Shown: one piece after another, positions 1-64,000 of the stretch
How the letters are laid out: every line of letters begins with the position of its first letter
Numbering within the stretch: the first letter of the stretch is position 1
Source of the DNA: Obrimoposthia wandeli
Taxonomy: Eukaryota
Length of the DNA stretch: 64,000 bases
NCBI GenBank assembly: GCA_977020255.1
Contig: CDROCS010000279.1
Location: 62,001 to 126,000, forward strand
Direction: 5' to 3'
Made by a program: the position numbers and the translations under genes
Notes under the pieces: model-generated
Seen by the model: the letters and a program-made list of their open reading frames with translations, nothing else
What the model was told of the DNA's origin: nothing
The model's database searches: none

Positions 1-146
1 TCCCCTCCTCCACCATGATGCCAATAAATATTTTTGAAACTAGATTTGAAAATAGATTCATTTTGCAACAATTTACAGACGAAATGTGTCTTTCCACTTC
101 CACTAGGGCCAACTATTTGAAATACAGCATTATTATTTAGCTCCAT
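1..146 (-). CDS. FtsK/HerA (A32-like) DNA-packaging ATPase, N-terminal part, truncated by window edge
   Basis: ATG at 146; reads MELNNNAVFQIVGPSGSGKTHFVCKLLQNE..., with Walker A GPSGSGKT. Near-identical to 63633-63778. Confidence 0.85.
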   Translation of the reverse strand, partial: MELNNNAVFQIVGPSGSGKTHFVCKLLQNESIFKSSFKNIYWHHGGGG

Positions 147-183
147 TGCATATACTCTTTCATTTTTAATATTGTTTATATTA

Positions 184-456
184 TCATAGAAGTTTCCTTA
201 TTGAAATGTACAATGTTAGAGCTATTGTAGAATAAATACAAAAATTAATTAATGAATATTTGGCTATAATTTTATTTATTTGTGTACGATTTCTAAATTC
301 TCGAATAACGTGTGATCTAACCAATATTTCAATGTTATCTCTTGTTATATCATTATTTTTTAATTCTGATAAAATTTCTTTACCCCTAATTTTTCCAGAA
401 AATATTTCATCGGCAAGCCGATCCACTTCATTGTCTCTATTTATAGTATTATTCAT
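184..456 (-). CDS. 90-aa Maverick ORF with a C-terminal hydrophobic segment (putative small membrane protein)
   Basis: Intact ORF between the TBP-like gene and the ATPase; C-terminus YSLINFCIYSTIALTLYISIRKLL. Homologue at 63321-63595. Confidence 0.7.
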   Translation of the reverse strand: MNNTINRDNEVDRLADEIFSGKIRGKEILSELKNNDITRDNIEILVRSHVIREFRNRTQINKIIAKYSLINFCIYSTIALTLYISIRKLL

Positions 457-554
457 TCAAAACAATAAGTTTAAACGGGTTTGTTTATAGAAAAGATAAC
501 AAGATGTAATAAGATATATTTTCTAAAATAAAATCAACAATGTCTAGAGTTTTT

Positions 555-988
555 TCAATATATTTTCAATCCCAATATCATAACTTTACCACTGGAAAAT
601 ATATTTATACATAGCGGTTTAAACTTCAAATAACTGAGAGCAGGAAAAATTTCTGGTTCAAACATGCATTCTTCTTTCATTTTCTCTGCAGTTTTAAAAA
701 GATTTGTCTGTTTCCCGAGATTAGCCGAAATCGTGATTGATTGTATTGCAATGATTTGAATTCCAAATGGAAAATTGAACCCAAGCATTGGTATTTTGCA
801 TCCCATAACACGACAATTTCCTAAAGAATTCAATATGAAAATAAAATAAAAAACTAACCTGTAGGAAAAATAACAACTGTGAAATTGTCAAACTTTTCTA
901 CATATTGTCTCGGTTTCCATTCATTGAATGGTAAGTACGAAACATCATCTTCTGTTCTACCTTTATAATTTATATTTACGAGTTTCAT
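555..988 (-). CDS. TATA-binding-protein-like gene, two exons (988-859, 820-555; 38-nt GT-AG intron 858-821), 131 aa
   Basis: Spliced product MKLVNINYKGRTEDDVSYLPFNEWKPRQYVEKFDNFTVVIFPT^GNCRVMGCK...IQSITISANLG...FEPEIFPALSYLKFKPLCINIFSSGKVMILGLKIY. It matches both TBP repeats (TALIFSSGKMVCTGAK; YEPELFPGLIY...LIFVSGKVVLTGAK). Relative to copy C a 4-nt length difference near the 3' end gives an early stop before the last helix. The intron is inferred. Confidence 0.75.
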
Positions 989-1084
989 TAGACTAAAATT
1001 GTATTCTGTAAAATCTTCTTTATATATGTCTGAACCTGCTTTTTTATTGCACGTTTCTTGTAATTATCTTGTAAACCTATTATA

Positions 1085-1190
1085 ATTGGATGATATATTT
1101 AGTCCAATCTAATCCAATGCTTTTGTTATATTAACCAATGAGATTCATGTTTTTTGTTAGAAATTAGTATAAAAGAATGCGCCATTGGAG
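1085..1190. promoter_or_regulatory. Candidate divergent Pol II promoter (CCAAT boxes plus TATA box) between the TBP-like gene and ORF158
   Basis: ATTGG 1085-1089; CCAAT 1104-1108, 1114-1118, 1135-1139; TATAAAAG 1168-1175, about 30 bp upstream of ATG 1206. The TATA and several CCAAT/ATTGG motifs are retained in copy C. Confidence 0.45.
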
Positions 1191-1205
1191 GACAAATCAC
1201 AGTAA

Positions 1206-1682
1206 ATGCATTCATATCAAAGACAATTATCAACGATGGACGATAGCCAACGGGTATTAAGCGATGACAAAGAAATGTTTGAAGAATCCGATAAGGATAT
1301 GTATGAAGAAGTGAAACAATATTTCAAATACAAAGTCAGATTTTTGAAGAAGGCTCAGCTGATTGCTTTAGTAAATCCTGTGACAATTGAAAGAAGAAAG
1401 TTCAGCTACTATCTATCAGGTATTCAAAAACCTGATTTTCAATATCTTAAACAGAAAATAGAAAAGGCAGTTCCAAATTTTACTTTCAATAAGAACGAAT
1501 TTTATATCCGAGGAGCCGATGAAGCATTTCTAGATGACTATGGAAGATATGTTGATATTGATGCGTTTCCGAAAAGGAAGCATTGGACTGTAACAATTCG
1601 ACTTTATGGTTACAAGAAAGATGAAATGGGAACAAAGTTGCCTATGTGGAAAATTGAACGTGCTCATATTTCTATGTTTTAA
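1206..1682 (+). CDS. Maverick ORF158, unknown function (paralogue of the adjacent ORF134)
   Basis: Intact 158-aa ORF; homologues at 56545-56976, 61906-62545, about 11340-11650 and a scrap near 26475-26525. Confidence 0.75.
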   Translation: MHSYQRQLSTMDDSQRVLSDDKEMFEESDKDMYEEVKQYFKYKVRFLKKAQLIALVNPVTIERRKFSYYLSGIQKPDFQYLKQKIEKAVPNFTFNKNEFYIRGADEAFLDDYGRYVDIDAFPKRKHWTVTIRLYGYKKDEMGTKLPMWKIERAHISMF

Positions 1683-1815
1683 CTTTTGTGTGTAATAAAT
1701 TGTAATCGGTTTTACTATGTTTCTTTCATTTAATAATCAGTTTTATTTGTATCTTATTTGTATCTTTTGTGTATTTTTTATAAATATTGTTTTTAATCAG
1801 TTTCCTTATTTTAGA

Positions 1816-2220
1816 ATGGATAAGAAATGTGTAGCAAATTTTTATTATCCCGAAAGAATTTCAAAAGAAAAACTATGTAATATATTAAAGAGGCATCAAA
1901 TTATACGAGTTATGAATCCTGTGAAAATATCAAAAGTGGAGAAAAAATATCTCATCGAAATTTTAACAACAACTGATTTTGATCAACTGAAAAATATTTT
2001 GGGATTTTACATTCCTGATTATGTATATGAAGGAAATTGTTTCGAGCTTGATACTGATCCCAGTCTGGATTTTAAAGATGATCTAGGATATTTGATTGCT
2101 CCAATTCTAGATGAAGAAATATGGAATATCTCAATACGTCTGAATGGATATTTTGCTGATGACGAGAAAATGCAGCCTCTCTGGACTTTGAGTGAAGCCA
2201 ATATGTTGTTTTATGTTTAA
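1816..2220 (+). CDS. Maverick ORF134 (track start 1717 probably over-extended; likely start MDKKCVANF at 1816), unknown function
   Basis: Intact ORF; homologues at 56011-56408, 61353-61760 and a diverged one at about 10810-10990. It shares Q(L/I)I..VNPV.I, DF..LK, W...IRL.GY..D and P.W....A with ORF158. Confidence 0.7.
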   Translation: MDKKCVANFYYPERISKEKLCNILKRHQIIRVMNPVKISKVEKKYLIEILTTTDFDQLKNILGFYIPDYVYEGNCFELDTDPSLDFKDDLGYLIAPILDEEIWNISIRLNGYFADDEKMQPLWTLSEANMLFYV

Positions 2221-2337
2221 TAAATATTTTGAAAAATAATTTTGTCTCGTATTTTGTTTTTGCTCCTCTAAATTATATAGATCTGACCGATGTTTTTCGT
2301 GCCTGTAGATCAAGAATGAAGCCCGCCCCGCAGGGGC

Positions 2338-3075
2338 NNNNNNNNNNNNNNNNNNNNNNNNNNNNNNNNNNNNNNNNNNNNNNNNNNNNNNNNNNNNNNN
2401 NNNNNNNNNNNNNNNNNNNNNNNNNNNNNNNNNNNNNNNNNNNNNNNNNNNNNNNNNNNNNNNNNNNNNNNNNNNNNNNNNNNNNNNNNNNNNNNNNNNN
2501 NNNNNNNNNNNNNNNNNNNNNNNNNNNNNNNNNNNNNNNNNNNNNNNNNNNNNNNNNNNNNNNNNNNNNNNNNNNNNNNNNNNNNNNNNNNNNNNNNNNN
2601 NNNNNNNNNNNNNNNNNNNNNNNNNNNNNNNNNNNNNNNNNNNNNNNNNNNNNNNNNNNNNNNNNNNNNNNNNNNNNNNNNNNNNNNNNNNNNNNNNNNN
2701 NNNNNNNNNNNNNNNNNNNNNNNNNNNNNNNNNNNNNNNNNNNNNNNNNNNNNNNNNNNNNNNNNNNNNNNNNNNNNNNNNNNNNNNNNNNNNNNNNNNN
2801 NNNNNNNNNNNNNNNNNNNNNNNNNNNNNNNNNNNNNNNNNNNNNNNNNNNNNNNNNNNNNNNNNNNNNNNNNNNNNNNNNNNNNNNNNNNNNNNNNNNN
2901 NNNNNNNNNNNNNNNNNNNNNNNNNNNNNNNNNNNNNNNNNNNNNNNNNNNNNNNNNNNNNNNNNNNNNNNNNNNNNNNNNNNNNNNNNNNNNNNNNNNN
3001 NNNNNNNNNNNNNNNNNNNNNNNNNNNNNNNNNNNNNNNNNNNNNNNNNNNNNNNNNNNNNNNNNNNNNNNNNNN
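2338..3075. other. Assembly gap (738 N)
   Basis: Run of N; ORF-track entries spanning it are artefacts. Confidence 1.
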
Positions 3076-3285
3076 GTACATCGCCAAGCTAGTCTGTGAC
3101 CTATATGTGAGCGAGATATCCGTACATTGCAGGGCTAGTCTGTGACCTATATGAGAGCGAGATATCCGTACATCGCAGGGCTAGTCTGTGACCTATATGA
3201 GAGCGAGATATCCGTACATCGCAGGGCTAGTCTGTGACCTATATGAGAGCGAGATATCCGTACATCGCAGGACTAGTCTGTGACC
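3076..3285 (+). repeat. 46-bp tandem array (about 4.6 copies visible; probably continues into the gap)
   Basis: Unit GTACATCGCAGGGCTAGTCTGTGACCTATATGAGAGCGAGATATCC starts at 3076, 3122, 3168, 3214 and 3260 (partial). Confidence 0.95.
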
Positions 3286-3335
3286 AATGTCTGTCCCGAG
3301 CCCTTCGCGCCGATAGGCGCGAAAAATGTTTAGGG

Positions 3336-3450
3336 CCCCCCCTCTTGTCCTTTAAAACCGTGCATGTGTGTGGAGTGAAATTTCACTCCACACACCTACA
3401 CGAAATTTCACTCCACACACATGCACGGTTTTAAAGGACAAGTGGGGGGG
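3336..3450. repeat. Subterminal palindrome/hairpin of the Maverick end
   Basis: About 48-bp arms CCCCCCTCTTGTCCTTTAAAACCGTGCATGTGTGTGGAGTGAAATTTC and its near-perfect reverse complement, with a 17-nt spacer. There is also a perfect 8-bp GC stem TTCGCGCC-GATA-GGCGCGAA at 3304-3323. Confidence 0.9.
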
Positions 3451-6400
3451 GAGGGGGGTGTGGATTAGATTTCAAAAAGTCGTCATCAAAATAAAAATCC
3501 GTTTATTTAATACGAAGCTTCAGTCCATCTAGTGGGAGTTGAATAATCTAATATCGCATTTTCGTACTTACCACCAAATACAACTTCTGAAATTTAGCCT
3601 TTAGACCAAGGGATAATTGGATCTGTTAACAGTTCCATATACAGATTTTAATGATAACGATAAAACTATCCGATGTGGGTCATATGGTATTATTATTGTG
3701 ACATAGAGTAACATACGAAACGTTTAATGTCTGTTTCAAAAGACCAATTCAAAAGTCGGAGCAAGAATTAAATGAGTTTCTTCTATATCCTTCTTTCCTT
3801 TGGGAGCAGATTTTGTCAGTTTTTTTCAAACTATTCAGTTATGTGAAGATAGTAAAGATTATAGTGGACACTGATGAAGAATTTTAGATCACTTCCTAAG
3901 AAGCAAATTTGTCCATTCAAAATATGGAAGGATTTTTTTGACAAATTTCAAAACTGAACTCTAAAAAGAAAAACAATCAAAACATTTAACTATGTAGTAC
4001 TCTGTGACGAGAAATAAAAAAATTAAATAGGAAAATATTATTGTTAATATTTCTCTCCCCTTCTCTATAAAATGACCACGTAATATCAATATTGTGGGAT
4101 CTGTTGTTGTGGATAATAATATCAAAAGTATCAAGAATTGCAAATAGTTTATTAACGGTATAATAAAGATCACAGATATAGTAGAGTTTGTCTGGTTTCT
4201 GGCGGTTTGTTTGTAGTTGAGGAGATTTGTTGTTTTTTGTTTGTTTGAATAGCTTTCGGTTCTTTCTTCGATTTATTCTTATTTTTCTTAGTTTCACTAA
4301 TTAGATTAGCAACCATGTAATTGTGGATTTATGCCTCAATGGCAATCGATATATCAAATGCATAAATTATTATTATTCATCTTTTCAACCTAATCATCAT
4401 CATTTTTATTATTATTTATTTAATTAATTTTATTTATTTACAATTTCATTTGAAATTAAGTCACACATAATAATAAAAATCAGTATTGTTTTAAACCTGG
4501 GTAATACTAGAAATTTGGAACAGCTGTTGCGCAAAATGCTGACCTAACAAACTCAATAAGATATGAGTACTAAATCATTTTAGGAGGGTACGTTTCACTC
4601 AAATACGTTGTTAATGTAAAATTTGTAAAAGCAAGCCATTATTATATTGTGAAAATTGCGAAGAAACTTTTTGTTAGGTACTATTTTACACTTTATCACA
4701 CAAAATAATCGATTTTCAAGTACATTTTATAAATATTGAACTGTTTTCACTCAATCCTGCTGGCCTATTTTAAGTGCACATTATATTTCGACATAGGGAA
4801 ACTTAAAAAAGAAAAATACCTTACATTTACACTATTAAATGTTAACAACTATATTACACAAAAACAAAAGCTAAAATAAATTCAAAGGAGTTGGAGCATA
4901 CAGAATTCATTGCAACAACTTCTCGGTTTAATAGATGGAAAAGTAGAAAAATGTTATTTAGTTGCATGAAGAAAAAAGTATTTTGTATCGACAAGAGCAG
5001 TCCCTCACATATTTCCAAGCTACTCCAAATGGTCGTTTACTGTCTCAGTATGTATGTATGTATTATTCTAGATATATTAAATCATTAATAAAATGTTTGA
5101 CTTTCTTTGATTGTGTTTTTTACATTCCATTAGTAATATGTATTTGTAAAATAACATACTATGTATTAGAGAAATAAACGGATATATAGTTTTAGTAATA
5201 TATACATAAAAAGTCATAAATTTTATGTAAAATTCATAAAATTCATAATTTTTATCATGAAATCTTAAAAATCATATTTTTGTAATTAAAAAAATTAATT
5301 TTTTTTCAACAATATTATTATAATTGACAATAAAAGGATTAGAATTTATAATAGAAGGGTTAAAATTTGTGTAAATATTCTTTGCTCTAATAATTTTTTG
5401 CATTAATTCATTGCTTATTTATATTCATTGGTTATTATTTATATAATATATATTTAGCTAAAAGCTGGTATCAAAGAATAAAATAAAGAGGCATACAAAT
5501 TAATAAATTGTTTAAAGTTTGGAGAAGACGTTTGTTGCATTAAATTTCATATACAAAAGTTTGACAACAAATGACATTAGATAGATAATCTATATGGAGA
5601 AACTAAAAAATCCTACTACAGTGCTGGACAAAATATAAGCCAACATCTGGAGCTTTTGAATGATAATTATATTTAATGAAGAATATACTATAAAGAAACC
5701 GTAACTTTTCAACAGAAAATATATCAGCTTATATTAGTATTACTTTCAATCAAGATTTAGTGTAAATAAATAAATTTGAAACATTGTAAATATTTGTTTT
5801 TCGTTTGGTCATAAAAGTCACATTTTTCTGAATTTTTGGGTAATTAATAAACAGCCCTAATCTTTAGTAATATTTGTTATCCGGTTAATTTGGAAAAACA
5901 TACCAAAATATCTATGATTTAATTAGCGGTTAAACGGGAACGCCGAATTCAAAACCCAACAATAATCAAACTCAAAACAGTGAACAGTTACTCAACATGC
6001 AGGATAAATGAGTGCTCTTTAAACTCGTGAAGTTCACTGATGAATATAAATAAATGAAAGATGATTAGTTAATTAGGCCAATACACTTTCCACAATAATG
6101 ATATCTCATCACTGGGAATATACACTGATCCCGATGATCCCCATTTTGTCCCCAGGGGTCACTTCAATTCCGAGATCGATACGTTTAGGCTGCATCGATC
6201 CGGGATTGAAGTAATTGTAGTCCTGGGGGTCTATTTAGAGAAAATACGAAGATAGGGAATTCGAAATGGCGGCTGTGCTTTGTCTGGCAACAATATATAT
6301 TTGAAAATTTAGCAACCTTTACTGGCCATTCGGTTGTAAATTTCCCTTATAATTTGATCCTTTCTCACTTTACAATTGTCGCTTTAATTGCTTTAATTAT

Positions 6401-10546: not shown

Positions 10547-11700
10547 AGTAGTTGGATATGTACGGTCTAATCCACCCTCCTCCTCCCCATTCTAGGCGAT
10601 ATGTGAGGGAGGGTAGTCATGTGTCTTATAAATATGTACATGTGTGTCTGGAGTGAAAATTCGCGTTGTGAGTATGATTTTAAAATTAAAGATAGTCTAT
10701 TTTTCTTGAACAATTGTAAAAATTTATTAACAGAAAGATTAAATATAAAACACCATATTAGCTTCATTTAAAGTTCAACGACGGTGCATATATAATTGGC
10801 AGGAACATGATTCGTATCGAAATATTTAATGCATCTCCTTCTAAATAAGTATCAAATACATAACCAAAGTCATATTTTAAAGCAAGATAGGGAACCACTT
10901 GAATCTTAAAAGAATTTCTTTAAAAAAGATAATCAAGCATAAAAAGTTCTAAAATATCTTTGAACTAATCAATATCAAAATTTCTTAAAATCCCCATTAA
11001 ATATTAATTTCAACTTTTGATATTTTCACGGATTTTCGAGATATTAAAATTTTGTATATAACTCAGAAAAAAATTCATTCTAAAAAAATAAAGAAAATTG
11101 ATTAAATACATATTTTTATAACAATTATATTTAAACAAGACACAAATATTATGAAACAAAATATAAAGAGATAAAAAATTAAAATTGATTACAATTTATT
11201 ACTTGAATAAAGTCAATACATACATATATACAATTTGAAAAAACATTAAACAATTAAATATAAAGTAAAAGTAAAATATATAGAAAGGAAAAATAGTCAA
11301 AACGTAGAGTTATGATTTCAAATTATAATTTATGTAGCTTTATTCAAAATTTCATTCTTCTAGCAACCATGAAGTCAACGTGTTACAGTCCAATGCATCT
11401 TTTTTAAAAACGCTTCAATATCATTTTTCTTCTCTATTTATCTAAAATTCTGAATATTATCTTTGAATATAAAATTCGTTTTTATCAAATTAAAAATTTT
11501 GGAACGGTTTTTTCAACTCTTTTTAAGATACAGAAAATCTGGCTTTTGAATATAACAGCTAAACGTTCTTATATCAACTGTCACAAGATTTACCAAAGCA
11601 ATTAGTTGAGCTTTCTTCAAGAACATCATTTTGTATTTGAAATATAATCCGGTTCGAGTTGTCTCTCCTTTAAAAGTACCCATGGCGCCATTTAAGTTGG
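10547..11700 (+). mobile_element. Diverged Maverick copy D (TIR plus decayed ORF134 and ORF158 homologues); right boundary unclear, may reach ~12800
   Basis: Starts AGTAGTTGGATATGTACGGTCTAATCCACCC (cf. AGTAGGTGGATGTGTCCGGTCTAATCC) and has CATGTGTGTCTGGAGTGAAA. The minus strand gives DID*FKDILELFMLDY...KYDFGYVFDTYLEGDALNISIR (ORF134-like) and YFKYKMMFLKKAQLIALVNLVTV...IQKPDFLYLK (ORF158-like). Same order as copies B and C. Confidence 0.8.
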
Positions 11701-20945: not shown

Positions 20946-21886
20946 ATGATGAAAGAAAAGAATTTTAGGGAATTTGCTGCTTTGAGCAAAACGCTTCAAA
21001 AAAGATGCCTAACTCCACTTGATGCATTTAATTTTGTACATGCGAAAATTAACAAAATAAGACAGAGATATCTTGGAGAAACTGTATTTTGGGGAGAAAA
21101 TGTGGATGATTTATTATCTAAAAACTCTAATAAAGAAGATATTGTTACATCCTGTATTGAGAGCCTGCAAGATTTCATAAAAATTCTATGTAATCATATG
21201 GTCGAAAGATTCCCAGAGGATGAAGTGCAAGACTGGGCGGCATTTGACTTAGTTTCATTAAAATCCCCCTCCTATGCTTTTGGCATCACACAAACTGAAT
21301 CCCTTTGGAACAAATATCAACATTTCTTGTCAGACCGTGCTCTCATAATTGAACAATATAATGAATTTAAGTACGTAATTGCTGAAAAAATTAAGTGTGG
21401 ATCAGTGAGCTCATTTTCAGACATGGTAGATTTTGTATTTCAATATGAACAATTTTCAGAGTTGTCTAAGCTGATGGACATCGGCGGGACTTTCTTGGCC
21501 TCAAGTGTTGACTGTGAACGTGGATTCAGTTTGATGAATTCCATTAAAACCAAGCTTAGGAGTAGTTTAGGAGAAGAACATTTGGACATTCTTATGAGGA
21601 CAAAGTCCTATTTACAAGATGGCTATGATGTAGACAAGGCAAAAGTTTACAAAGCGTGGATAAGTAGGAAAGATCGACGAGAAAAGAACTAAGAAAAATG
21701 TTTTTTAAATATAAATTGGATAATGTTTATTTCTGTTATATTAAAGTATGTAGTTATATTAGTAATATTAAAAATTGGTGTCAAAAATTTTATAAAATAT
21801 AGCGCACAAAAATTTTAATTTTTTGAAAACAGCGCACAAATCTCAAGTTTTCCGCACACGAGTAAAAAGAATTAGCGGGAGCCCTG
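20946..21886 (+). mobile_element. 5'-truncated hAT transposon: transposase C-terminus (dimerisation domain, ZNF862-like) plus 3' TIR
   Basis: 248-aa ORF 20946-21692 with ASSVDCERGFSLMNSIKTKLRSSL...LDILMR. The 3' end ...TTAGCGGGAGCCCTG (reverse complement CAGGGCTCCCGCTAA) ends at 21886. Confidence 0.8.
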
Positions 21887-47399: not shown

Positions 47400-48147
47400 A
47401 TTTTACCTTAACTTCATATTTAGCAAACACAATATAAGATGGGTTTATCAAAGCATTTGTCAAAAGAAGAAAAATTACAATAGATATTCTTCTGGGATTG
47501 AAAATTAACCCATCCAATTTTCAGACGTTAAAGGACGAAATCTATCAACTATATATCGTTATATTAACGGATAGAACCCTTCGTCAAATAAAAAGTCTAT
47601 TAATTCAATTCCATGCACAACGAAATACATTAAATACACATTAAATATCAAGGTGTTTTGCCAAATCATCCGAAATTATATGAAGATAAATGATATTAGT
47701 AAGCAAAAGTGTGATAAAGATTTTCCACTCACCAAAAAATCCGTAGAAAACGTTTTGATATTTCCGAAATTTTACTATCAAAATTTCATGATTATAGATA
47801 CTTTAAATTTTAGTGTTGAAAAATGTTTCGGAAAGGATGGGATGGTAAATAATGCATATTGTTGGACCTATCAAAATAATCAAAAGACATTCTCGAGAAG
47901 GTTTAGTTATGGTTTGGTGCGTCATTGGGTATAATTTAAAAAGCGATTTAGCAGTTGTAATTGTAACATTAAAGAGTCCCGAATATAAATATACATTAGA
48001 AACATTGCTAATACCAATGCTATCAAATAATTCGGGTTTCCAACAAGTTAATTATCCAGTACATAATGCTAAAATTATTAAAAATGGCTTCAAGAACAAA
48101 ACACAGATTCTCTAAAATGGCCTCCTCAAAGTCCAGATCTAATTATC
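47400..48147 (+). pseudogene. Tc1-like transposase relic, cut off at the SPDL motif by the duplicated block
   Basis: GLVMVWCVIGYNLKS...Y.YTLETLLIP...FQQVNYPVHNAK...WPPQSPDL. Confidence 0.75.
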
Positions 48148-49244
48148 ATTGGTCCGGGAATTGGTCAAATAGTACACAACTTTAATATACTAATTTTTTT
48201 TTGTTACAGAAAAAGGTGCTATGATAATGTTTCCTTGAAATACACTCTAGGGATTATTATTCATTCAAATTCTGTCGATTCACCATCCCAATTCTCTTGG
48301 TTATAGTCTCCCTGAAATTGTACAACTACAAGATAAATTCATAACCGATTCACTAATTCTGACCACCCCGGTTTATCTGTAATAATTTACGGAGTCAGCA
48401 CCTATGACAATAAGAACTGTCCAGGCCGTTAACTATGATGACATAATGGATGGAATAAGTCCCTCTCATAATTAACAGCCAACAGAAATAGTTTTTATGG
48501 TATGATAATGAGAAATATCTCGAATTACTTATTAGAAGAGTAATTGAATTTTCTCATGAGTATGTTAATGAGTTATAACTATAGCAAACATAAATAAGTA
48601 CTCCTTGAATAAGTCTTAATCCTCTTGTTTTAGTCATATTTCACTTGTCATATGGAGAAGATCAAACGACGGAAATCCCTTCCCAATTAATTAGCAAATA
48701 GTTCTGCTTTGGCTGTACTTGTAAATGTCGGTTCAAGAGTAAGAAACGTTCTCTCTAGTTCATTTCTAACAAAATTGAATGGAGACTTTTGTTAGTTTCC
48801 ATTCTAAGACTCCAAACATTTTATGGTTTTCAGAAATACCCTTTAAATATTTTCCTCACTGATTTCGGTCCCTCTTTGAAGGTATTTTTATAAAATTTAA
48901 TGAACGTTTTTCTTTATTGTACATCTTTCAGTTAATTTGAAATGTATTCCCAAAATTGATCAGTTCCAGGATTTTTGTTGTTGTAGTTATACAATAAAAT
49001 AAGAATCTGCAAACATGGATTTAAAATTTTGACGTCTACTTGTCTACGTACACTTTTGATAGATTTTTCGAGCAGCTCCTAAATATTGAGGTTTTTCTCG
49101 TTCAGTTGTGAAATATTCTTTGACATGAGATTCAAATAAACAAGATTTTTCATCTCTCCCTATAAGAAGAAATCTAGAGAACGTACATTAGTGATATTTG
49201 CTATTTACTAAGTTTGTTTTTCATAACCTAAAAATTCAAAAAAG
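48148..49244 (+). repeat. 1,097-bp direct duplication, copy 1
   Basis: Near-identical to 52312-53408 (offset 4,164); one substitution noticed by eye (48943 T / 53107 G). Confidence 0.95.
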
Positions 49245-52200: not shown

Positions 52201-52311
52201 TAGTGTCACATATTTTAAGTTAATAGTTTATTAGTAATACGACATTGTGTTTTTCTATTACCTCATGTCAACTCCATTTATGTTAATGGTTTCTTCGGCT
52301 TTCTTTCCATT

Positions 52312-53408
52312 ATTGGTCCGGGAATTGGTCAAATAGTACACAACTTTAATATACTAATTTTTTTTTGTTACAGAAAAAGGTGCTATGATAATGTTTCCTT
52401 GAAATACACTCTAGGGATTATTATTCATTCAAATTCTGTCGATTCACCATCCCAATTCTCTTGGTTATAGTCTCCCTGAAATTGTACAACTACAAGATAA
52501 ATTCATAACCGATTCACTAATTCTGACCACCCCGGTTTATCTGTAATAATTTACGGAGTCAGCACCTATGACAATAAGAACTGTCCAGGCCGTTAACTAT
52601 GATGACATAATGGATGGAATAAGTCCCTCTCATAATTAACAGCCAACAGAAATAGTTTTTATGGTATGATAATGAGAAATATCTCGAATTACTTATTAGA
52701 AGAGTAATTGAATTTTCTCATGAGTATGTTAATGAGTTATAACTATAGCAAACATAAATAAGTACTCCTTGAATAAGTCTTAATCCTCTTGTTTTAGTCA
52801 TATTTCACTTGTCATATGGAGAAGATCAAACGACGGAAATCCCTTCCCAATTAATTAGCAAATAGTTCTGCTTTGGCTGTACTTGTAAATGTCGGTTCAA
52901 GAGTAAGAAACGTTCTCTCTAGTTCATTTCTAACAAAATTGAATGGAGACTTTTGTTAGTTTCCATTCTAAGACTCCAAACATTTTATGGTTTTCAGAAA
53001 TACCCTTTAAATATTTTCCTCACTGATTTCGGTCCCTCTTTGAAGGTATTTTTATAAAATTTAATGAACGTTTTTCTTTATTGTACATCTTTCAGTTAAT
53101 TTGAAAGGTATTCCCAAAATTGATCAGTTCCAGGATTTTTGTTGTTGTAGTTATACAATAAAATAAGAATCTGCAAACATGGATTTAAAATTTTGACGTC
53201 TACTTGTCTACGTACACTTTTGATAGATTTTTCGAGCAGCTCCTAAATATTGAGGTTTTTCTCGTTCAGTTGTGAAATATTCTTTGACATGAGATTCAAA
53301 TAAACAAGATTTTTCATCTCTCCCTATAAGAAGAAATCTAGAGAACGTACATTAGTGATATTTGCTATTTACTAAGTTTGTTTTTCATAACCTAAAAATT
53401 CAAAAAAG
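52312..53408 (+). repeat. 1,097-bp direct duplication, copy 2
   Basis: See copy 1 at 48148-49244. Confidence 0.95.
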
Positions 53409-54550: not shown

Positions 54551-56010
54551 ATGACTTAGAGTCGCCGGATTGCAGAATAAAGCGTATTTAACTATAAAAT
54601 TCCGGACACACAGTATTCGTACTCAGTATGCTAGAATGTTTGAAATTCACACAACCATGAGCATGCCATTGATTCGCCCTTAAGAAGTCAGGGAACGCGC
54701 TGGCCATTCTAGAGACCATGTTCTGCCAAGTGCAACATTAGAGAAATACAGACGAGCCACGACTTGCAGGTAAATATTTTCTTTACGACGCTTGTTAAAC
54801 AAAAATACTTATTCAACACACGACAACATTTTCTGTGTTCATGTTTGTGAAGTTTATGTCAAACTGATCAATCTTGAATTGGATACCATACATTATCTGT
54901 AGGGTCTACTAGTGAAGACTATTGTAGTTTGTGGAGACAATAAATATTTCATACCGAGTATGTCGAATTTGAATCATCAAAATAATATGACAAAAATTAC
55001 AACAACAAAATGTAGTTGGAGTTTGAAAAAGTTACAAAAGTTAAGCCTTTGTCGAACAATAACTTTCATACAATATAATAAAAAGTTCATAAAATAAAGC
55101 AAAATATCTTACAGCCAAATTTTAAAATAAAATTATTTATATATATAATACTTAATCTTCTTAAATTTTATTATATTAAATATCTCCAATTTCTATCAGT
55201 GCTTAATTAATATTTAAGCAAATATGCAATTTTGTTATTAACTTTTAAAAAATATTTTAATAAATAAAATAGATATTTTTTTTAATGATGCTTAATAAAA
55301 TATCCAATCAATACATATATTGTAGGGTTTTTTTCTTTTAAATTTTTAATCCTCGTACGAAGGCCCCCAACGTGATATGGCCTTCTGTAGCGATATGGCT
55401 TACATATGGATGTGGCCTACCTATTCAAGTCTCTAAAGGTTTTTGTGTTGTGTTAAGAGTTGTGAACAAGATAATTTAAAGTTCCCTAAAACTATTGTTG
55501 TGTGGTGTGGGTCTGAATCTTATGTTAGCGTCTCCCTGATTAATTCTCGGCTTAATACGGTTATCCTAGTTGCTATCAAGTTACGTTGACCTATCTGAAT
55601 ACGTGGGTGGTTCCCTAACAAGTCTTATGCTAAGGTATAGGTGGATGTGTCCGGTCTAATCCACACCCCCTACCCCCACTGTCCTTTAAAACCGTGCATG
55701 TGTGTGGAGTGAAATTTTGTGTATCTGTGTAGGGAAAAATTGAAAAAGCATCGAATAGGAAGGAAGTTCGGGGTACCCCCTATATTTTTATTTAACTTTG
55801 AAATTTATCTCGAAAGTGGTTAGAGAAGACCACGAGAATCCATATTGGACCCGACGGCTTTTCGCAGACGAGATTTCAAATAATATATTACAACTATTTT
55901 TAAGAAAGATTACTAGATGTTAAATATTTAGGTCAGAGAGAAAAATAGATCTATATAATTTAGAAGAGTAAAAACAAAATACGAGTCAAAATTATTTTTC
56001 AAAACATTTA

Positions 56011-56408
56011 TTAAACATAAAACAACATATTGGCTTCACTCAAAGTCCAGAGAGGATGCATTTTCCCATCATCAGCAAAATATCCATTGAGACGTATTGA
56101 GATATTCCATAGTTCTTCATCTAGAATTGGAGCAATCAAATATCCTAGATCATCTTTAAAATCCAGACTGGGATCAGTTTCAAGCTGGAAACAATTTCCT
56201 TCATATACATAATCAGGAATGTAAAATCCCAAAATATTTTTCAGTTGATCAAAATCAGTTGTTGTTAAAATTTTGATGAGATATTTATTCTGCACTTTTG
56301 ATATTTTCACAGGATTCATAACTCGTATAATTTGATGCTTCTTTAATATATTACATAGTTTTCCTTTTGAAATTCTTTCTGGATAATAATAATTTGCTAC
56401 ACATCCAT
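56011..56408 (-). pseudogene. ORF134 copy B; 7-nt deletion after the start codon, downstream frame open from Met at 56319
   Basis: ATGGAT-GTGTAGC versus ATGGATAAGAAATGTGTAGC in copy A; the remainder is about 90% identical. Confidence 0.8.
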
Positions 56409-56544
56409 TCTAAAATAAGGAAACTGATTAAAAACAATGTTTATAAAACAATACATATAAGATACATATATTGAAAAAATAAAACTGATTATTAAATGAA
56501 AGAAACATAGTAAAACTAATTACAATTTATTACACGTAAAAAGT

Positions 56545-56976
56545 TTAAAACATAGAAATATGAGCACGTTCAATTTTCCACATAGGCAACTTTGTCCCCA
56601 TTTCATCTTTCTTGTAACCATAAAGTCGAATTGTTACAATCCATTGTTTTTTTTTCGGAAATGCATCAATATCAACATATCTTCCATAGTCATATAGAAA
56701 TGCTTCATCGGGTCCTCGGATATAAAATTTGTTCTTATTGAAAGTAAAATTCGGAACTGCCTTTTCTATTTTCTGTTTAAGATATTGAAAATCAGATTTT
56801 TGAATATTTGATAGATAGTAGCTGAACTTTCTTCTTTCAATTGTCACAGGATTTACTAAAGCAATCAGTTGAGCCTTCTTCAAGAATCTGACTTTGTATT
56901 TGAAATATTGTTTCACTTCTTCATACATATTCTTATCCGATTCTTCAAACATTTCTATATCTTCGTCACCGCTTAA
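56545..56976 (-). CDS. ORF158 copy B (5' end lost in the gap)
   Basis: Open frame MFEESDKNMYEEVKQYFKYKVRF...KIERAHISMF. Confidence 0.75.
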   Translation of the reverse strand, partial: LSGDEDIEMFEESDKNMYEEVKQYFKYKVRFLKKAQLIALVNPVTIERRKFSYYLSNIQKSDFQYLKQKIEKAVPNFTFNKNKFYIRGPDEAFLYDYGRYVDIDAFPKKKQWIVTIRLYGYKKDEMGTKLPMWKIERAHISMF

Positions 56977-57134
56977 NNNNNNNNNNNNNNNNNNNNNNNN
57001 NNNNNNNNNNNNNNNNNNNNNNNNNNNNNNNNNNNNNNNNNNNNNNNNNNNNNNNNNNNNNNNNNNNNNNNNNNNNNNNNNNNNNNNNNNNNNNNNNNNN
57101 NNNNNNNNNNNNNNNNNNNNNNNNNNNNNNNNNN
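56977..57134. other. Assembly gap (158 N)
   Basis: Run of N inside Maverick copy B. Confidence 1.
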
Positions 57135-57145
57135 ATATTTTAGAC

Positions 57146-57229
57146 CTCCCCCTGTCCTTTAAAACCGTGCATGTGTGTGAAGTGAAATTTCACTCCATAC
57201 ACATGTACGATGTTAAAGGACAGGGGGAG
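57146..57229. repeat. Subterminal palindrome at the right end of copy B
   Basis: CTCCCCCTGTCCTTTAAAACCGTGCATGTGTGTGAAGTGAAA|TTTCACTCCATACACATGTACGATGTTAAAGGACAGGGGGAG; about 42-bp arms, about 5 mismatches, no spacer. Confidence 0.9.
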
Positions 57230-59352
57230 TGGGTGTGTGGATTAGACTGGACATATCCACCTACTCTAAGGCTTTGCGTTTAATTGAAACGATTTATTTC
57301 TATGACAACATGGACACTAATTCTCTACACAGAATTATTAGAAACAATTACTACTTCTCTACTGGAGAATCTACAAAGGAAACAGTTACCAATTCTCGAA
57401 TGCAGAATTCACAAGCTAATTAAGATCGACACTCTATACGTTCGTGACCAAATATCCTTTTAACAAATACGCTATTATCTCGCGGATAATTCAATCAAAT
57501 ACTTAATTATTAATTTTATAGATAATTTAAAAGGTTTTAACTTTTTAGTTCAATATATTTGCAAGAGATTTTAACTTTATATTTTTACGTTATATCTCAC
57601 GATTTGTTTTGGAGGATGTTGTCCAATTGATCGGTCTCCTTTTGCCATCTGATACACAGTCCTCAGATACGCAGTCCTCAGATACGCAGTCTTCCGATAC
57701 ACTTCTTCCAGCTCAGTCCCAATCTGTTATCATCTGATTTACCCGATTCAGTTTCTAGAATGATGTGTATCACACAATAAAGCAATCGCCATATATAATT
57801 GACTGATCGGTGATTTTCTCGAGGCCGGATGCTGTAATGACGAGATCGCGATGTTGCTGTGCGGCCAAGTTGTTGAATTGAAACATAATCGGCTGTTAAT
57901 TGCCGTTGTAAATGGTGACTTTCCTAATGCCGTTAATGGCGATGTGGAATTTGGATAAATTAATTTGTCACATATTAATTAATTTCCACCATGCGATTCC
58001 GTCGACCCCTCGAGCTTTTGCTCCAATCTTCAACAGGACTTTTTTTAACATTTTTCTTAGCTTAGAAACACATTTTCATGACCTTTTCAAGGTGCTATTT
58101 TTTTGCATTAATTAAATATTTTATTTTAATTTTATAAACTTCAATTTAGAAAGTTATTTATTTATTATAGATTCTTATTTTATTATTTTTATTCATTTTT
58201 CCTAAGTCTAACAATATAAATATTTAAAAAAAGAGAACATTTTGCCGATGCTGACTTTCTAAAAAGAGAAAGAACTACTAAACGAACAATTTAGGCTCCT
58301 GAAAGATGGGGATTTGACAGTTTAGATTTTCTGTCTGATCTCAATGTTTCAGAGCATGACGATTTGCCAAGTGATTGAGGGTGTGGACTTGAAAATATCG
58401 ATGATCAAATCCAGTTGAATAAATAAAACAGATGCAGATGTTAACCCTGAGTGGAGTAACGACGGAGACCACGACGTATATGGAAATATTGATAATCCAT
58501 CCTGCAACTTCAAATATATTTTACAGGGAGAATCACTAAATTGATATCCACAGAAATTTGCCAAATAAAGACATGTCAACCTACACTGATTAAATAAAGG
58601 TTCTTTTTGGTCTTTACATTAGAATGGACATTTTCAAAATTCTAAAAAATCGTATGTTATTGAGTAGAAAAGCGAGACTATCAATCATTGCCGATCATAC
58701 GGTCATAGGCCATCACAAAATGAAAAAACCATGTAAAACCCTCCGGCACGTGGTAAACTAATGAAGAAAGTGTAATGTTTTGTCAAAGATCAAAATTATT
58801 TGATTAAATTCCATACAAACAAAAATTTTATTTCCTTTATTGAATCCAGGTCTCTATCATTTTTTAAATGCATGTTTTGGGTTATTTTTATGTTTATCTG
58901 TACATCCGGAAGAAGGTAAAAACGTAATATATTTTCATATTTGCCAACAATAAAGGGTTAACATGAAATTTGACCGCATCGGAAAATAAGTTTAGCAGAA
59001 ATTACCGTTAATTTTTGAATACGAGTGCACTGGTATGTATGACGATTATCTTCTGAAAGCAATAGAAATGATTGATTAATAACAGTCTATCTTTGTAACT
59101 GTGGGAAATAGTTTCTTCTTGTCATCTCAGAATTTTCCTATGCAATACCGCATGAAACACAGTTTAGCTTTTTGTTCCATGCTTAGGCTCTCTTTATTAG
59201 AATGGCTGAAACTGAAATCCTTTACTAAAAGAAGCTAATTTGAAATTTGATTCATCGGTTTTCAGATTTTTAAAAATTGGAAATTTCTAAAACTATTTTT
59301 ATTGAAAAACTATTACAGTGGCTAAGTCTTGCTCTGAATATTCGGCCTGCAG

Positions 59353-59730
59353 CTGCTGAAGATGGTTGTCCTGGTGGCGAGTCTGTACGGCTTGAGCCAA
59401 TTGCCGCGCCACGTCTTCTTCCTCTTCAGCCTGAACCACTCCGAGATGTGGATCAGCGAGCGCAAGCACTTGTTACTGTACGGCTGGCTCTTCTGCATTC
59501 TCGCTGGCCTCTCCGCAACGGGCTACAATCCTCTGATATACTGTTGGATGAATCCCCAGTTCCGCCGAGCCTTCAGACGCATCTTGCGCCGTCTGCTACC
59601 TCCGCCATGTCGACCTGCCGTTACTCCAACTTCGGCTTCAGCAGTCACCAGGGGCCCCACTACTCGCTCTCTTCTAGCGCAGGGAGGCCCCCATCACCCC
59701 CACGACCAGCACCAACATGGAGACATGTGA
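59353..59730 (+). CDS. Neuropeptide GPCR last recognisable exon: TM6-TM7-helix 8-C tail
   Basis: CCTGCAG|LLKMVVLVASLYGLSQLPRH...LAGLSATGYNPLIYCWMNPQFRRAF...*. Phase 0; joins exon 18152-18385 as SKRK|LLKM; NPxxY present. Confidence 0.92.
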   Translation: MLKMVVLVASLYGLSQLPRHVFFLFSLNHSEMWISERKHLLLYGWLFCILAGLSATGYNPLIYCWMNPQFRRAFRRILRRLLPPPCRPAVTPTSASAVTRGPTTRSLLAQGGPHHPHDQHQHGDM

Positions 59731-60923: not shown

Positions 60924-61352
60924 GTTGCTATAGTAGGTGGATGTGTCCGGTCTAATCCCCACCTCCCCCCACTGTCCTTTAAAACCGAGCATGTGTGTGG
61001 AATGAAATTTCGTGTATGTGTGTGAAGTGAAATTTTGTGTATGTGTGTAGGGGAAAAAATTTAAAAATTGAAAAGTAACGAAGTACACCCCATCCCCCCA
61101 AAAAAAATTAAAATTTTACTTTGAAATTTATCTCGAAAGTGGTTAGAGAAGACCACGGGAATCCATATTGGACCTGGCGGCTTATTGCAGACGAGATTTC
61201 AAATAATATATTACTACTATTTTTAATTTTTAGATTTTAGATTTTAGATTACTACATGTTAAATATTTAAGTCAGATTTATAAGAGAAAAATAGATCTAT
61301 ATAATTTAGAGCAAAAAAAACAAAATACGAGTCAAAATTATTTTCAAAACAT

Positions 61353-61760
61353 TTATAAAACATAAAACAACATATTGGCTTCACTCAAAGTCCAAAGAGG
61401 CTACATTTTCCCGTCATCAGCAAAATATCCATTGAGACGTATTGAGATATTCCATAGTTCTTCATCTAGAATTGGAGCAATCAAATATCCTAGATCATCT
61501 TTAAAATCCAGACTGGGATCAGTTTCAAGCTGGAAACAATTTCCTTCATATACATAATCAGGAATGTAAAATCCCAAAATATTTTTCAATTGATCAATAT
61601 CAGATGTTGTTAAAATTTCGATGAGATATTTATTCTCCACTTTTGATATTTTCACAGGATTCATAACTCGTATAATTTGATGCCTCTTTAATATATTACA
61701 TAGTTTTCCTTTTGAAATTCTTTCTGGATAATAAAAATTTGCTACACATCTCTTATCCAT
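61353..61760 (-). pseudogene. ORF134 copy C with a premature stop near the C-terminus
   Basis: ...DDGKM*PLW versus KMQPLW in copy A (CAG to TAG). Confidence 0.8.
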
Positions 61761-61905
61761 TCTAAAATAAGGAAACTGATTAAAAACAATGTTTATAAAA
61801 AATACACATAAGATACATATAAGATACAAATATTTAAAAAATAATCCTGATTATTAAATGAAAGAAAAATAGTAAAACCGATTACAATTTATTACACGCA
61901 AAAAG

Positions 61906-62545
61906 TTAAAACATAGAAATATGAGCACGTTCAATTTTCCACTTAGGCAACTTTGTCCCCATTTCATCTTTCTTGTAACCATAAAGTCGAATTGTTACAA
62001 TCCATTGTTTCTTTTTTGGAAATGCATCAATATCAACATATCTTCCATAGTCATATAGAAATGCTTCATCGGGTCCTCGGATATAAAATTTGTTCTTATT
62101 GAAAGTAAAATTCGGAACTGCCTTTTCAACTTTCTGTTTAAGATATTGAAAATCTGGTTTTTGAATATTTGATAGATACAGTAATTATTCACCTATAAGG
62201 GGTCCCACCTATAAGGGTGTCCGGTCACCGAAAATTTCACGCTTCACCTATAATAGTACCTTTCCAAGCTTTTAAATAATGCATCTATAAGTGATTCGGT
62301 GTCGGTCTCTCTCAAAAACATGTTTTAATGAATACCCTTACAGGTGAATAATTACTGTAGTAGCTGAACTTTCTTCGTTCAATTGTCACAGGATTTACTA
62401 AAGCAATCAGTTCAGCCTTCTTCAAGAATCTGACTTTGTATTTGAAATATTGTTTCACTTCTTCATACATATCCTTATCCGATTCTTCAAACATTTCTAT
62501 ATCTTACTCATCGCTTAATACCCGTTGTCTTTGATATGAATGCAT
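61906..62545 (-). pseudogene. ORF158 copy C, disrupted by a MITE
   Basis: Collinear with 1206-1682 except for the insertion at 62179-62357. Confidence 0.85.
62179..62357. mobile_element. 179-bp Tc1/mariner-type MITE with TA target duplication
   Basis: TA|CAGTAATTATTCACCTATAAGGG ... CCCTTACAGGTGAATAATTACTG|TA; 23-bp TIR with 1 mismatch. The empty site GATAGATAGTAGCTG is in copy B. Confidence 0.95.
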
Positions 62546-62795
62546 TTACTATGATTTGTCATCCAATGACGCATTCTTTTATACTAATTTCTAACAAAGA
62601 CATGAATCTCTTTGGTTAATAAAACTAAAGCATTGAATTTGATTGGACTAAATCCATATTAAAAATCAAATTTGATTGGAAGAAATATATCATTCAATTA
62701 TAATAGGTTTACAAGATAATTACAAGAAACATGAAATAAAAAAGCAGGTTTCAGACTTATCTAAAGAAGATTTTATAGAATACAATTTTAGTCTA

Positions 62796-63328
62796 ATGAA
62801 ACTCGTAAATATAAATTAAAAAGCTAGAACCGAAGATGATGTTTCGTACTTACCATTCAATGAATGGAAGCCGAGACAATATGTAGAAAAGTTTGACAAT
62901 TTCACAGTTGTTATTTTTCCTACAGGTTAGTTTTTTTATTTTCATATTGAATTCTTTTAGGAAATTGTCGTGTTATGGGATACAAAATACCAATACTTGG
63001 GTTCAATTTACCATTTAGAATTCGAATCACTGCAATACAATCAATCACGATTTCGGCTAATCTTGGGAAACATATAAATCTTTTAAAAACTGCAGAGAAA
63101 ATGAAAGAAGAATGCATGTTTGAACCAGAAATGTTTCCTGCTCTCAGTTATTTGAAGTTTAAACCGCTATGTGTAAATATACTTTCCAGTGGTAAAGTAA
63201 TGATATTGGGATTGAAAATGTTTGATTATCCAGACATTGTTGATTTGATTTTAGAAAATATATCTTATTACATCTTGTTATCTTTTCTATCAACAAACCC
63301 GTTTAAATTTATTGTTTCAAATGAATAA
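62796..63328 (+). pseudogene. TBP-like gene, copy C (exons 62796-62925, 62961-63328; 35-nt intron); nonsense codon 8
   Basis: Same exon-1 length (130 nt) as copy A with TAT changed to TAA at 62817-62819. Intron GTTAG...TTTTAG at 62926-62960. Exon 2 is open through the C-terminal helix region. Confidence 0.75.
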
Positions 63329-63595
63329 TACTATAAATAGAGACAATGAAGTGGATCGTCTTGCCGACGAAATATTTTCTGGAAAAATTAGGGGTAACAA
63401 TATTTTTTTATCGGAATTAAAAAATAATGATATAACAAGAGATAACATTGAAATATTGGTAAGATCACACGTTATAAGAGAATTTAAAAATCGTCACAAA
63501 TAAATAAAATTTTATCCAAATATTCATTAATTAATTTTTGTATTTCATCTACAATAGCTCTATCATTGTACATTTCAATAAAGAAACTTCTATGA
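63321..63595 (+). pseudogene. Small membrane-protein ORF, copy C, frameshifted before the hydrophobic tail
   Basis: 1-nt deletion (CGT-CACAAATAA versus CGTACACAAATA in copy A). Confidence 0.7.
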
Positions 63596-63632
63596 TAATA
63601 TAAACAATATTAAAAATGAAAGAGTATATGCA

Positions 63633-64000
63633 ATGGAGCTAAATAATAATGCTGTATTTCAAATAGTTGGCCCAAGTGGAAGTGGAAAGACACATTTCGT
63701 CTGTAAATTGTTGCAAAATGAATCTCTTTTCAAATCTAGTTTCAAAAATATTTATTGGCATCATGGTGGAGGAGGGGAAAGCGGGTTAACCAAAACAGAA
63801 GTTTGCAAGTTGAAGGGTATAAAATTTATTGAAGGATTTGATGCAAATTGGTGTAAAAGATTGAAAAAAGAAGATGTAATAATACTTGATGATTTGTATG
63901 AGGAGGCTAACAAGGAATCGGACTTTAATAATTTATTTACAAAGATTGCAAGACATCGTGAAGTTACAGTTATATTTATCACTCAAAATCTGTTTCACCA
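63633..64000 (+). CDS. FtsK/HerA (A32-like) DNA-packaging ATPase of Maverick/Polinton type, truncated by window edge
   Basis: MELNNNAVFQIVGPSGSGKTHFV...VIILDDLY...LFTKIARHREVTVIFITQNLFH: Walker A, Walker B, the RH motif and ITQ motif in the expected order. Not listed in the ORF track because it has no stop in the window. Confidence 0.9.
   Translation, partial: MELNNNAVFQIVGPSGSGKTHFVCKLLQNESLFKSSFKNIYWHHGGGGESGLTKTEVCKLKGIKFIEGFDANWCKRLKKEDVIILDDLYEEANKESDFNNLFTKIARHREVTVIFITQNLFH

Follow-up and report, generated by a model that had tools for sequence, protein, structure and literature searches.

Beta- and gammaherpesviruses encode factors that resemble the TATA-binding protein (TBP), among them ORF24 from KSHV (Kaposi's sarcoma-associated herpesvirus), BcRF1 of Epstein-Barr virus (EBV) and UL87 of human cytomegalovirus (HCMV), and these viral TBPs (vTBPs) go together with a non-canonical TATA variant before virion genes (PMC12529657, PMC4893493). 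Vertebrate Mavericks, when intact, have been described as lacking introns and as present in low copy number (PMC8097293), in planarians Polintons go up after knock-down of PIWI (PMC8532177), and the adintovirus paper, in the part of it available, mentions TBP only as a figure-legend label for non-animal MELD viruses (PMC8502044); a further source for Maverick/Polinton comparison is PMC6431247. The single-stranded DNA-binding proteins (SSBs) of protein-primed viruses have been stated to be unrelated to oligonucleotide-binding (OB) fold proteins of the T7 gp2.5 type, which were placed in phages and Megavirales (PMC4889955) and are also reported for nucleocytoplasmic large DNA viruses (NCLDVs) and mriyaviruses (PMC11253617). 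In this study we analysed a window of 64,000 nucleotides from the AT-rich, 1.35-Gb genome of Obrimoposthia wandeli (positions 62001-126000 of contig CDROCS010000279.1, here C279), whose right edge holds the left end of a Maverick/Polinton copy, named copy C. Two predicted SSB genes lie in this left end beside a short TBP-like gene, whose product probably activates the virion module by way of the box TATAAACA, a reading that comes from sequence comparison and to which we give a probability of about 0.62.

The gene order at 60932-64000 runs from the terminal inverted repeat (TIR) through the open reading frames ORF134 and ORF158, both on the minus strand, and a divergent gap to the TBP-like gene, a small ORF and the packaging ATPase, all on the plus strand (Table 1). 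An earlier note, made from the letters of the window, had described this order and its inverted recurrence in a second copy, copy A, and both were found; the part with ORF134 (SSB2) and ORF158 (SSB1) is also present in copies B and D. The same note listed ORF134 and ORF158, gave them no function and missed the TATAAACA box. Copy C itself is a broken, internally deleted member of a recently amplified family: ORF134, ORF158, the TBP-like gene and the small ORF are all interrupted by stops, a frameshift or a 179-bp miniature inverted-repeat transposable element (MITE), and the ATPase frame alone is open.

Lineages in the host genome are labelled F1 to F6, F1 being the copy C family and the others sister lineages. 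By sequence comparison, the short TBP-like gene and an SSB-like gene occur in several of these lineages and in public metagenome contigs, at terminal or internal positions and with one or two SSB genes, and the layout and the SSB duplication appear specific to the copy C family. The module had been called an unusual terminal one of a distinct lineage; this is borne out in part, the module being clade-wide and not always terminal. The proposal that it is always terminal or unique to the copy C family was rejected, since other lineages and metagenome contigs have it. Newly seen here are the paralogy of the two predicted SSBs, the likeness of the ORF158 model to the T7 gp2.5, Enc34 and African swine fever virus SSBs, the intron-split TBP and the TATAAACA box in the virion module. 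The literature searched held no report of a Polinton TBP-box system or of a gp2.5-type SSB, with the limit that figure maps and Repbase entries may label such genes and that most subscription papers lay outside the scope; papers listed for Polinton promoter motifs dealt with virophages and PLVs, a supplement file of PMC8502044 had no whole-word match for TBP, SSB or TATA, where figure maps may again label these genes, and the available part of 10.1101/2024.03.18.585575 had no passage on SSB, TBP or transcription.

Table 1. Coordinates of the features of copy C and of the other copies (window positions unless C279 is given; a dot marks features without strand)
Feature	Position	Strand	Remarks
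Target site duplication (TSD), 6 bp, TGCTAT	60926..60931; second copy C279:132986-132991	.	second copy directly beyond the far tip
Copy C left TIR, AG-tipped, about 80 bp	60932..61010	+	88.6% identical to far TIR over 79 nt, first 27 nt identical
ORF134 (SSB2), predicted T7-gp2.5-type OB-fold SSB	61359..61760	-	ORF158 paralogue; in-frame stop at codon 120 in copy C
TATAAACA box, 37 nt upstream of ORF134 start	61790..61797	-	8 nt
ORF158 (SSB1), predicted T7-gp2.5-type SSB	61909..62545	-	early stop and MITE in copy C; open in copy A, 1206-1682 (+)
MITE-like insertion, 179 bp, 25-nt inverted arms (flanking TA counted)	62179..62357	.	inside ORF158, copy C only
Canonical TATA-like TATAAAAG, 38 nt before ORF158 start	62576..62583	-	divergent promoter region; by eye
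TBP-like exon 1 (43 codons and 1 nt), carrying a shortened first TBP repeat	62796..62925	+	stop at codon 8 in copy C
Phase-1 GT-AG intron, 35 nt (34-39 nt in family), immediate in-frame stop	62926..62960	+	same site and phase in F3, F4, F6, L120
TBP-like exon 2, PF00352 E 3.3e-10	62961..63328	+	copy C lacks the usual stop, 12 codons longer
Small ORF, 90 aa in copy A, borderline hydrophobic C-terminus	63321..63592	+	frameshifted in copy C; function not found
TATAAACA box, 34 nt upstream of ATPase start	63599..63606	+	8 nt
Packaging ATPase, 215 aa, Pox_A32 (PF04665) E 5.6e-7	63633..64000, on to C279:126277	+	open frame
Copy A, about 17 kb, module inverted	1..3469, far tip C279:48412	-	TBP exon 2 ends at 87 aa; near tip absent
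Copy B, 1.63-kb non-autonomous derivative, both tips	55636..57265	+	TSD CTAAGG; SSB2 and SSB1 region
Copy D, left end of diverged sister family	10547..11690	+	68-73% identical; degraded SSB2 and SSB1 homologues; no far tip within window

The short TBP-like gene and its intron

The TBP-like gene had been recognised in the earlier note, which saw exon 2 but missed the upstream exon and the intron. The protein matches PF00352 above the cut-off (E 3.3e-10; 1.3e-17) and TBPs of the PDB at E 2e-8, with Atlas scores of 0.95-0.97. Its second repeat keeps the EPE-x-FP stirrup, the VN-x-F-x-x-GK motif and two phenylalanines, and its first repeat, about 35 amino acids shorter, keeps one; the TBP family has four intercalating phenylalanines (PMC12529657). 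The DNA-facing residues (QS-x-T, EPE-x-FP, VN-x-F) are near-invariant among lineages, across which pN is 0.26-0.35 versus a pS of 0.47-0.86. A word-index homologue search with exon 2 yielded no candidate that held (0/12). The host TBP gene (two inverted copies on C238) and TBP-related factor (TRF)-like genes (C60, C1092, C968) lie elsewhere in the genome (L023-L032).

Of 43 TBP loci, 33 could be scored with an intron of 34-39 nt, six had no acceptor context and four no donor context. Introns of 35-40 nt with different sequence, at the same site and in the same phase, interrupt the gene in F3, F4, F6 and the metagenome contig L120, while in F2 and F5 it is intronless and encodes 144-147 amino acids collinear with exon 1 plus exon 2. 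The junction is also read through in 13 of the 14 metagenome TBP homologues listed. The naturally intronless F2 and F5 serve as the decisive control, and from these lineage comparisons the intron is probably spliced out. Exon 2 has 121 amino acids in copy C versus 109 in 17 of the 33 scored copies, and the overlap of the TBP stop with the next ATG, previously taken as a sign of tight gene packing, turned out to be a lesion of copy C.

The Polinton TBP and its box resemble, by analogy, the herpesvirus vTBP/TATT system without being a member of it. In both cases a virus-type TBP-like factor accompanies a non-canonical TATA variant before virion genes; the Polinton protein, in contrast, stands alone, has 144-153 amino acids and can be recognised from its sequence, the acidic stirrup, which is absent from KSHV ORF24 (PMC12529657), is kept, and the box is TATAAACA rather than TATTWAA. 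Of the other five proteins of the herpesvirus vPIC (ORF18, ORF30, ORF31, ORF34 and ORF66) no counterpart was noticed, though no search aimed at them was made. If the two act together, they would parallel the TATT system with far fewer parts.

We also observed that a gene for an IAP (BIR + RING) adjoins TBP in sister lineages (L065:691-3592; L087, L093, L095), and that F3 has a dual-specificity phosphatase gene in addition.

Distribution of the TATAAACA box and its possible readers

In F1-F3, TATAAACA stands ahead of most virion-module genes, and TBP, SSB1, IAP (F3), phosphatase and polymerase-side genes are preceded by canonical TATA-like words, read by eye. The sense/antisense counts of the box in these discovery lineages are 7/1, 8/0 and 7/0, values reached by 0/200 shuffles. 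Since TATAAACA had been picked by eye, it was tested on fresh lineages and contigs. The held-out F4 and F5 copies gave 9/0, 9/0, 9/0, 6/1 and 5/1 (0/200 shuffles each), the three F4 copies not being mutually independent, nor the two F5 copies, and no box was found in three polymerase regions of the held-out lineages. Five metagenome contigs, found through TBP alone, gave 27/0, and 19 of these 27 boxes lie 28-52 nt before an ORF start versus 1.43 expected; for the five genome lineages the corresponding figure is 20 of 43 versus 1.84 expected. Pooled, the box occurs 64 times in sense and twice in antisense, with 37 of the 64 at 31-49 nt and 22 at 33-36 nt before starts.

As a negative control, six 30-kb neighbourhoods of Polintons of another capsid class were scanned, in which about half of the ORFs were judged to belong to these elements. 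None of 54 ORFs of at least 150 amino acids had TATAAACA at a distance of 60 nt or less; the TBP and SSB profiles matched nothing in these elements, the only TBP match lying in an F1 fragment.

These data are consistent with a two-step scheme. Host TBP and RNA polymerase II (Pol II) would start early transcription at canonical TATA-like sites of the divergent promoter, leftward into SSB1 and rightward into the TBP-like gene; SSB would coat the strand displaced during replication by the protein-primed family B polymerase (pPolB); and the element TBP, once its message is spliced, would bind TATAAACA and so bring host Pol II to the genes for the ATPase, the small core-like protein, the capsid and the protease and, in the copy C family, to SSB2. 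Recruitment could go through TFIIB, because the acidic stirrup is kept, unlike in KSHV ORF24. By the geometry of TBP-DNA complexes, it is the N-terminal repeat that reads the box's 3' half, and the altered first repeat of the element TBP would fit the 3' half of TATAAACA, which is where the box departs from canonical TATA. A one-gene TBP with an 8-nt box would offer a direct handle on Polinton regulation, since predictions follow from it on where transcription starts, on a division into early and late genes and on the phenotype of a knock-down.

The main rival explanation, which we consider unlikely though clearly ahead of the other two, is that machinery of the host, be it its TBP, a TRF paralogue or a different factor, reads TATAAACA as a core promoter, and that the element TBP has some other role, for example as a dominant-negative decoy or host shut-off factor. 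The host indeed has a TBP and several TRF-like genes, the first repeat of the element TBP is truncated, EBV BcRF1 binds TATA and TATT alike in vitro (PMC4893493) and the TBP-box link is confounded with clade. Against it, position 7 keeps its non-canonical C (TATAAACA 64/2 versus 10/4 for canonical TATAAAAA; neither this word nor the position-4 T variant, 1/2, is enriched), the density of the box in host DNA of the window is about 0.1 per kb per strand, and the DNA-facing residues of the element TBP hardly vary.

Several observations weigh against the action of the element TBP on TATAAACA. The first repeat, or exon 1 alone, matches neither Pfam, PDB nor host TBP, and the first repeat of host TBP gave no useful alignment to it. 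With an assignment and numbering of the intercalating positions that we in part assume, phenylalanine stands at three of the four and the first appears replaced. For the box, 23 of 43 have no ORF start 28-52 nt downstream, a range that was set after the data were seen, and nine of the 43 overlap or follow a stop codon. The box is not restricted to structural genes: SSB2, orf111 and the F4 IAP have it, two lie in the presumed early region of F3, one lies on the polymerase strand of the metagenome contig L101, and the F4 TIR has an outward-facing box with no ORF behind it. The canonical TATA sites before presumed early genes were read by eye and are common in AT-rich DNA, and none was found before several metagenome TBPs. 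Additionally, the TBP-box link amounts to a single clade contrast, and absence of TBP from the control elements is not proven because these are fragmented.

Two further readings of the box are very improbable. One takes it as a forkhead-type host factor site that confers tissue-specific expression and is no TATA substitute: the forkhead-type consensus is RYAAAYA, and ATAAACA, contained in TATAAACA, occurs 93 times in sense and seven in antisense, but other words of this type are not enriched (GTAAACA 11/6, ACAAACA 9/8, ATAAATA 21/32, GTAAATA 11/15), and the orientation is fixed and the spacing tight, at 33-36 nt. The other takes the box to mark the 3' end (polyadenylation or termination) of the gene before it, in an array of closely spaced tandem genes. 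It could draw on the boxes at stops, on those that trail the last ORFs at F4 ends and on the resemblance of TATAAA to a poly(A) variant, yet a promoter is favoured because of the box positions (20 of 43 before starts, 14 inside long ORFs and at least 30 nt ahead of the stop, nine at stops); the distance to the following start varies little and that to the preceding stop widely, and no box comes after the final genes of F1 units (protease, SSB2), SSB1 having AATAAA 13 nt past its stop.

With a late promoter read by the element TBP as the preferred explanation, a broader proposal can be made, for which our expectation stays somewhat below even: a Polinton clade, present in this genome and in unrelated metagenomes, may run its own two-step transcription, in which a minimal TBP whose first repeat is altered reads a private TATAAACA late box and turns on virion genes through host Pol II, and T7-type SSBs shared with giant viruses aid protein-primed replication. 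If so, such elements would count as viruses under temporal regulation, and theirs would be the simplest viral-TBP system known.

The F4 TIRs (L094:7690-7810, plus strand; L095, minus strand, after the SSB gene) contain the outward TATAAACA, behind which come some 85 nt of GC-richer sequence, with AATAAA lying 108-109 nt past the box. The stretch has no ORF of at least 40 amino acids and is a candidate for a small non-coding RNA; on the F4 right end, Rfam gave no more than sub-threshold hairpin matches.

The genome holds a second class of Polintons (L151-L168), with PF21738-type capsids and about 30% polymerase identity, and no TBP, SSB or box was seen in the stretches of it that were read.

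ORF158 and ORF134 as predicted single-stranded DNA-binding proteins

ORF158 and ORF134 are 27% identical (E 1e-12), which identifies them as paralogues. An exhaustive search revealed 23 unnamed remote homologues with 24-32% identity, and a structural model of ORF158 built from a 25-sequence alignment reached a pLDDT of 87.9. When this model was compared with 48,161 chains, T7 gp2.5 (1je5) came out on top (Z 7.8, root-mean-square deviation 3.3, 110 residues aligned), followed by the Enc34 SSB (5odk, Z 7.4), a DUF2815 protein (4klk, Z 7.4) and CP312R of African swine fever virus (8hw5/7yeq, Z 6.6), with the remaining OB folds at 5.2 or less. Foldseek against the PDB gave probabilities of 0.97, 0.98 and 0.82 for the same SSBs, at E values of at least 0.03, and against BFVD 28 matches with E of 1e-3 or lower, all named ones of which are proteins of large or giant DNA viruses; ESM Atlas (0.84-0.85) pointed to DUF2738, DUF5871 and Pox_I3 clusters, which are taken as leads only. 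Because the ORF158 model matches in the structure comparison and in Foldseek, with the Atlas leads, both proteins are probably T7-type SSBs, the fold assignment of ORF134 resting on paralogy because its own single-sequence model failed (pLDDT 32.6) and was not used.

Homologues of these genes adjoin TBP in lineages F1, F2, F4, F5 and F6, none being found in the F3 stretch read, and TBP has an SSB gene as its neighbour in 10 of the 26 close loci from metagenomes, with two in tandem in one case. A word-index search with ORF158 gave no candidate that held (0/11), a profile search (A1) returned only three of its own members, and profile scans of metagenomes (P0006) and of viral contigs (P0015, A4) found no relatives.

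Other points tell against the SSB assignment. The family has no Pfam, PHROGs or PDB sequence match; the structural match, with Z below 8 and 10-12% identity, may reflect a common arrangement, and the PDB hits of Foldseek have the weak E values given above. An acidic C-terminal tail is a feature of gp2.5, and none was found in ORF158, whose sequence ends right after the last strand and whose acidic stretch is N-terminal. OB-fold proteins with another job, such as RNA binding, end or TIR protection or annealing, are the alternative to replicative SSBs, one that we regard as unlikely, about on a par with host reading of the box. It gains from the many OB folds that reach Z 4-5, from the 'late' box of SSB2 and from the low identity between the paralogues. 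It has to contend with the four best matches of ORF158, every one a member of the T7-type SSB group and scoring higher than other OB folds, with the maintenance of the gene beside TBP in the lineages and metagenome loci listed, and with the frequent occurrence of SSBs in pPolB viruses (PMC4889955).

On the ORF158 model, the predicted SSBs share the gp2.5-type fold with their best neighbours and differ in sequence, in the missing acidic tail, in belonging to a protein-primed replicon and, in the copy C family, in their tandem duplication. If the assignment is right, a T7-gp2.5-type SSB in such a replicon would supply a missing piece of the Polinton replication kit, tie Polintons to Nucleocytoviricota by an additional gene and contradict the claim of PMC4889955 that viruses of this kind use unrelated SSBs.

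The element, its family and neighbouring features of the window

Copy C and its relatives belong to the Mavericks/Polintons on the features tested, with capsid and protease identity weak by sequence. In common with that group they have two gene blocks of opposed orientation (pPolB, rve integrase, ATPase, protease-like, capsid-like), TIRs with a 6-bp TSD, and a length of 15-17 kb where long copies are uninterrupted; the copy C family differs in adding the TBP-like and SSB-like genes, a uniform promoter box and mini-introns. The AG-start TIRs, the TSD (TGCTAT at both ends of copy C, CTAAGG in copy B, identical flanks in six of seven mapped tip pairs) and an A32-like ATPase had been named in the earlier note as hallmarks, and all were recovered. 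It had also predicted core genes beyond both window edges and, for copy C, a far TIR followed by TGCTAT; the integrase, capsid-like, protease-like and pPolB genes are there, and the far TIR was located at C279:132985, so that copy C measures 10,054 bp from 60932.

Past the ATPase, copy C has a small core-like ORF, the integrase gene and one gene each of minor-capsid-like, core-like, major-capsid-like and protease-like type; a broken polymerase follows on the opposite strand, and the genes that longer copies have on the right have been lost by deletion. The polymerase is recognised in copy A (PF03175, E 1.9e-7), its frames being broken and its 5' part deleted in copy C. The integrase matches PF00665 (E 5.5e-12), with an accompanying chromo domain below the cut-off. 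For the protease, a PF00770 match (E 0.034) is below the cut-off and the gene is conserved at the expected position. The F1 capsid-like protein has no Pfam and no PDB sequence match, and its F4 homologue has a weak PF16903 match (E 0.023); the capsid-like genes are named by position, size and an N-terminal likeness that we presume. Two metagenome contigs have stop-free core-gene matches. The small ORF, presented previously as a transmembrane protein, is present, but its hydrophobic tail is borderline (best 19-residue Kyte-Doolittle mean 1.64). At the start of the F1-F3 protease (L074, L072, L013) an apparent micro-exon, ATG plus 2 nt, is followed by a short GT-AG intron, as seen by eye.

The family is large and young, in agreement with the recent activity previously proposed. 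Its 27-nt tip has 15,282 exact occurrences in the genome (7,723 + 7,559) versus none for the reversed control, compared with at most 287 copies for vertebrate Mavericks (PMC8097293). Ten copies average 96.6% identity, and among first-look ORF158 candidates the best 150 of 40,993, a selected set, are all at least 98% identical and stop-free. With more than 15,000 tips, the family has put many copies of the TBP-like gene into the host genome. The seven tip pairs, mapped in this and other contigs, span 4.0-22.3 kb, two copies without nested elements having 15.0 and 16.8 kb, and the copy B pair has matching flanks too. Several tip pairs are only about 170-300 bp apart, which suggests gene-less miniature derivatives among the tips, and a diverged Maverick (F2, intronless TBP) is nested within an F1 copy at C1663:236450-247333.

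Self-comparison of the window gave 90.0 and 93.8% identity for A/C, 93.9% for A/B and 88.5 and 96.3% for B/C, close to the 90% estimated earlier by eye; copy D differs, at 68-73%, and represents a sister family. Copy A extends left of the window with the same genes. Its ends show 46-bp tandem repeats and an internal TIR fold-back (window 3076-3450; L015:6412-6700), absent from the short TIRs of copy C, and copy B has a similar 84-nt palindrome at 57146-57229.

Elsewhere in the window, a 1.1-kb direct repeat (48145-49244 and 52309-53408, 99.8% identical) encloses about 3 kb and is probably a long terminal repeat pair of a very recent insertion, and a 109-bp tandem array occupies 12867-13439. 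A frame of 248 amino acids at 20946-21692 presumably corresponds to the end of a hAT transposase. Frames at 16584-16826, 18131-18430 and 59273-59730 look like what we take to be exons of a 7-transmembrane receptor, in which case copy B would sit in an intron.

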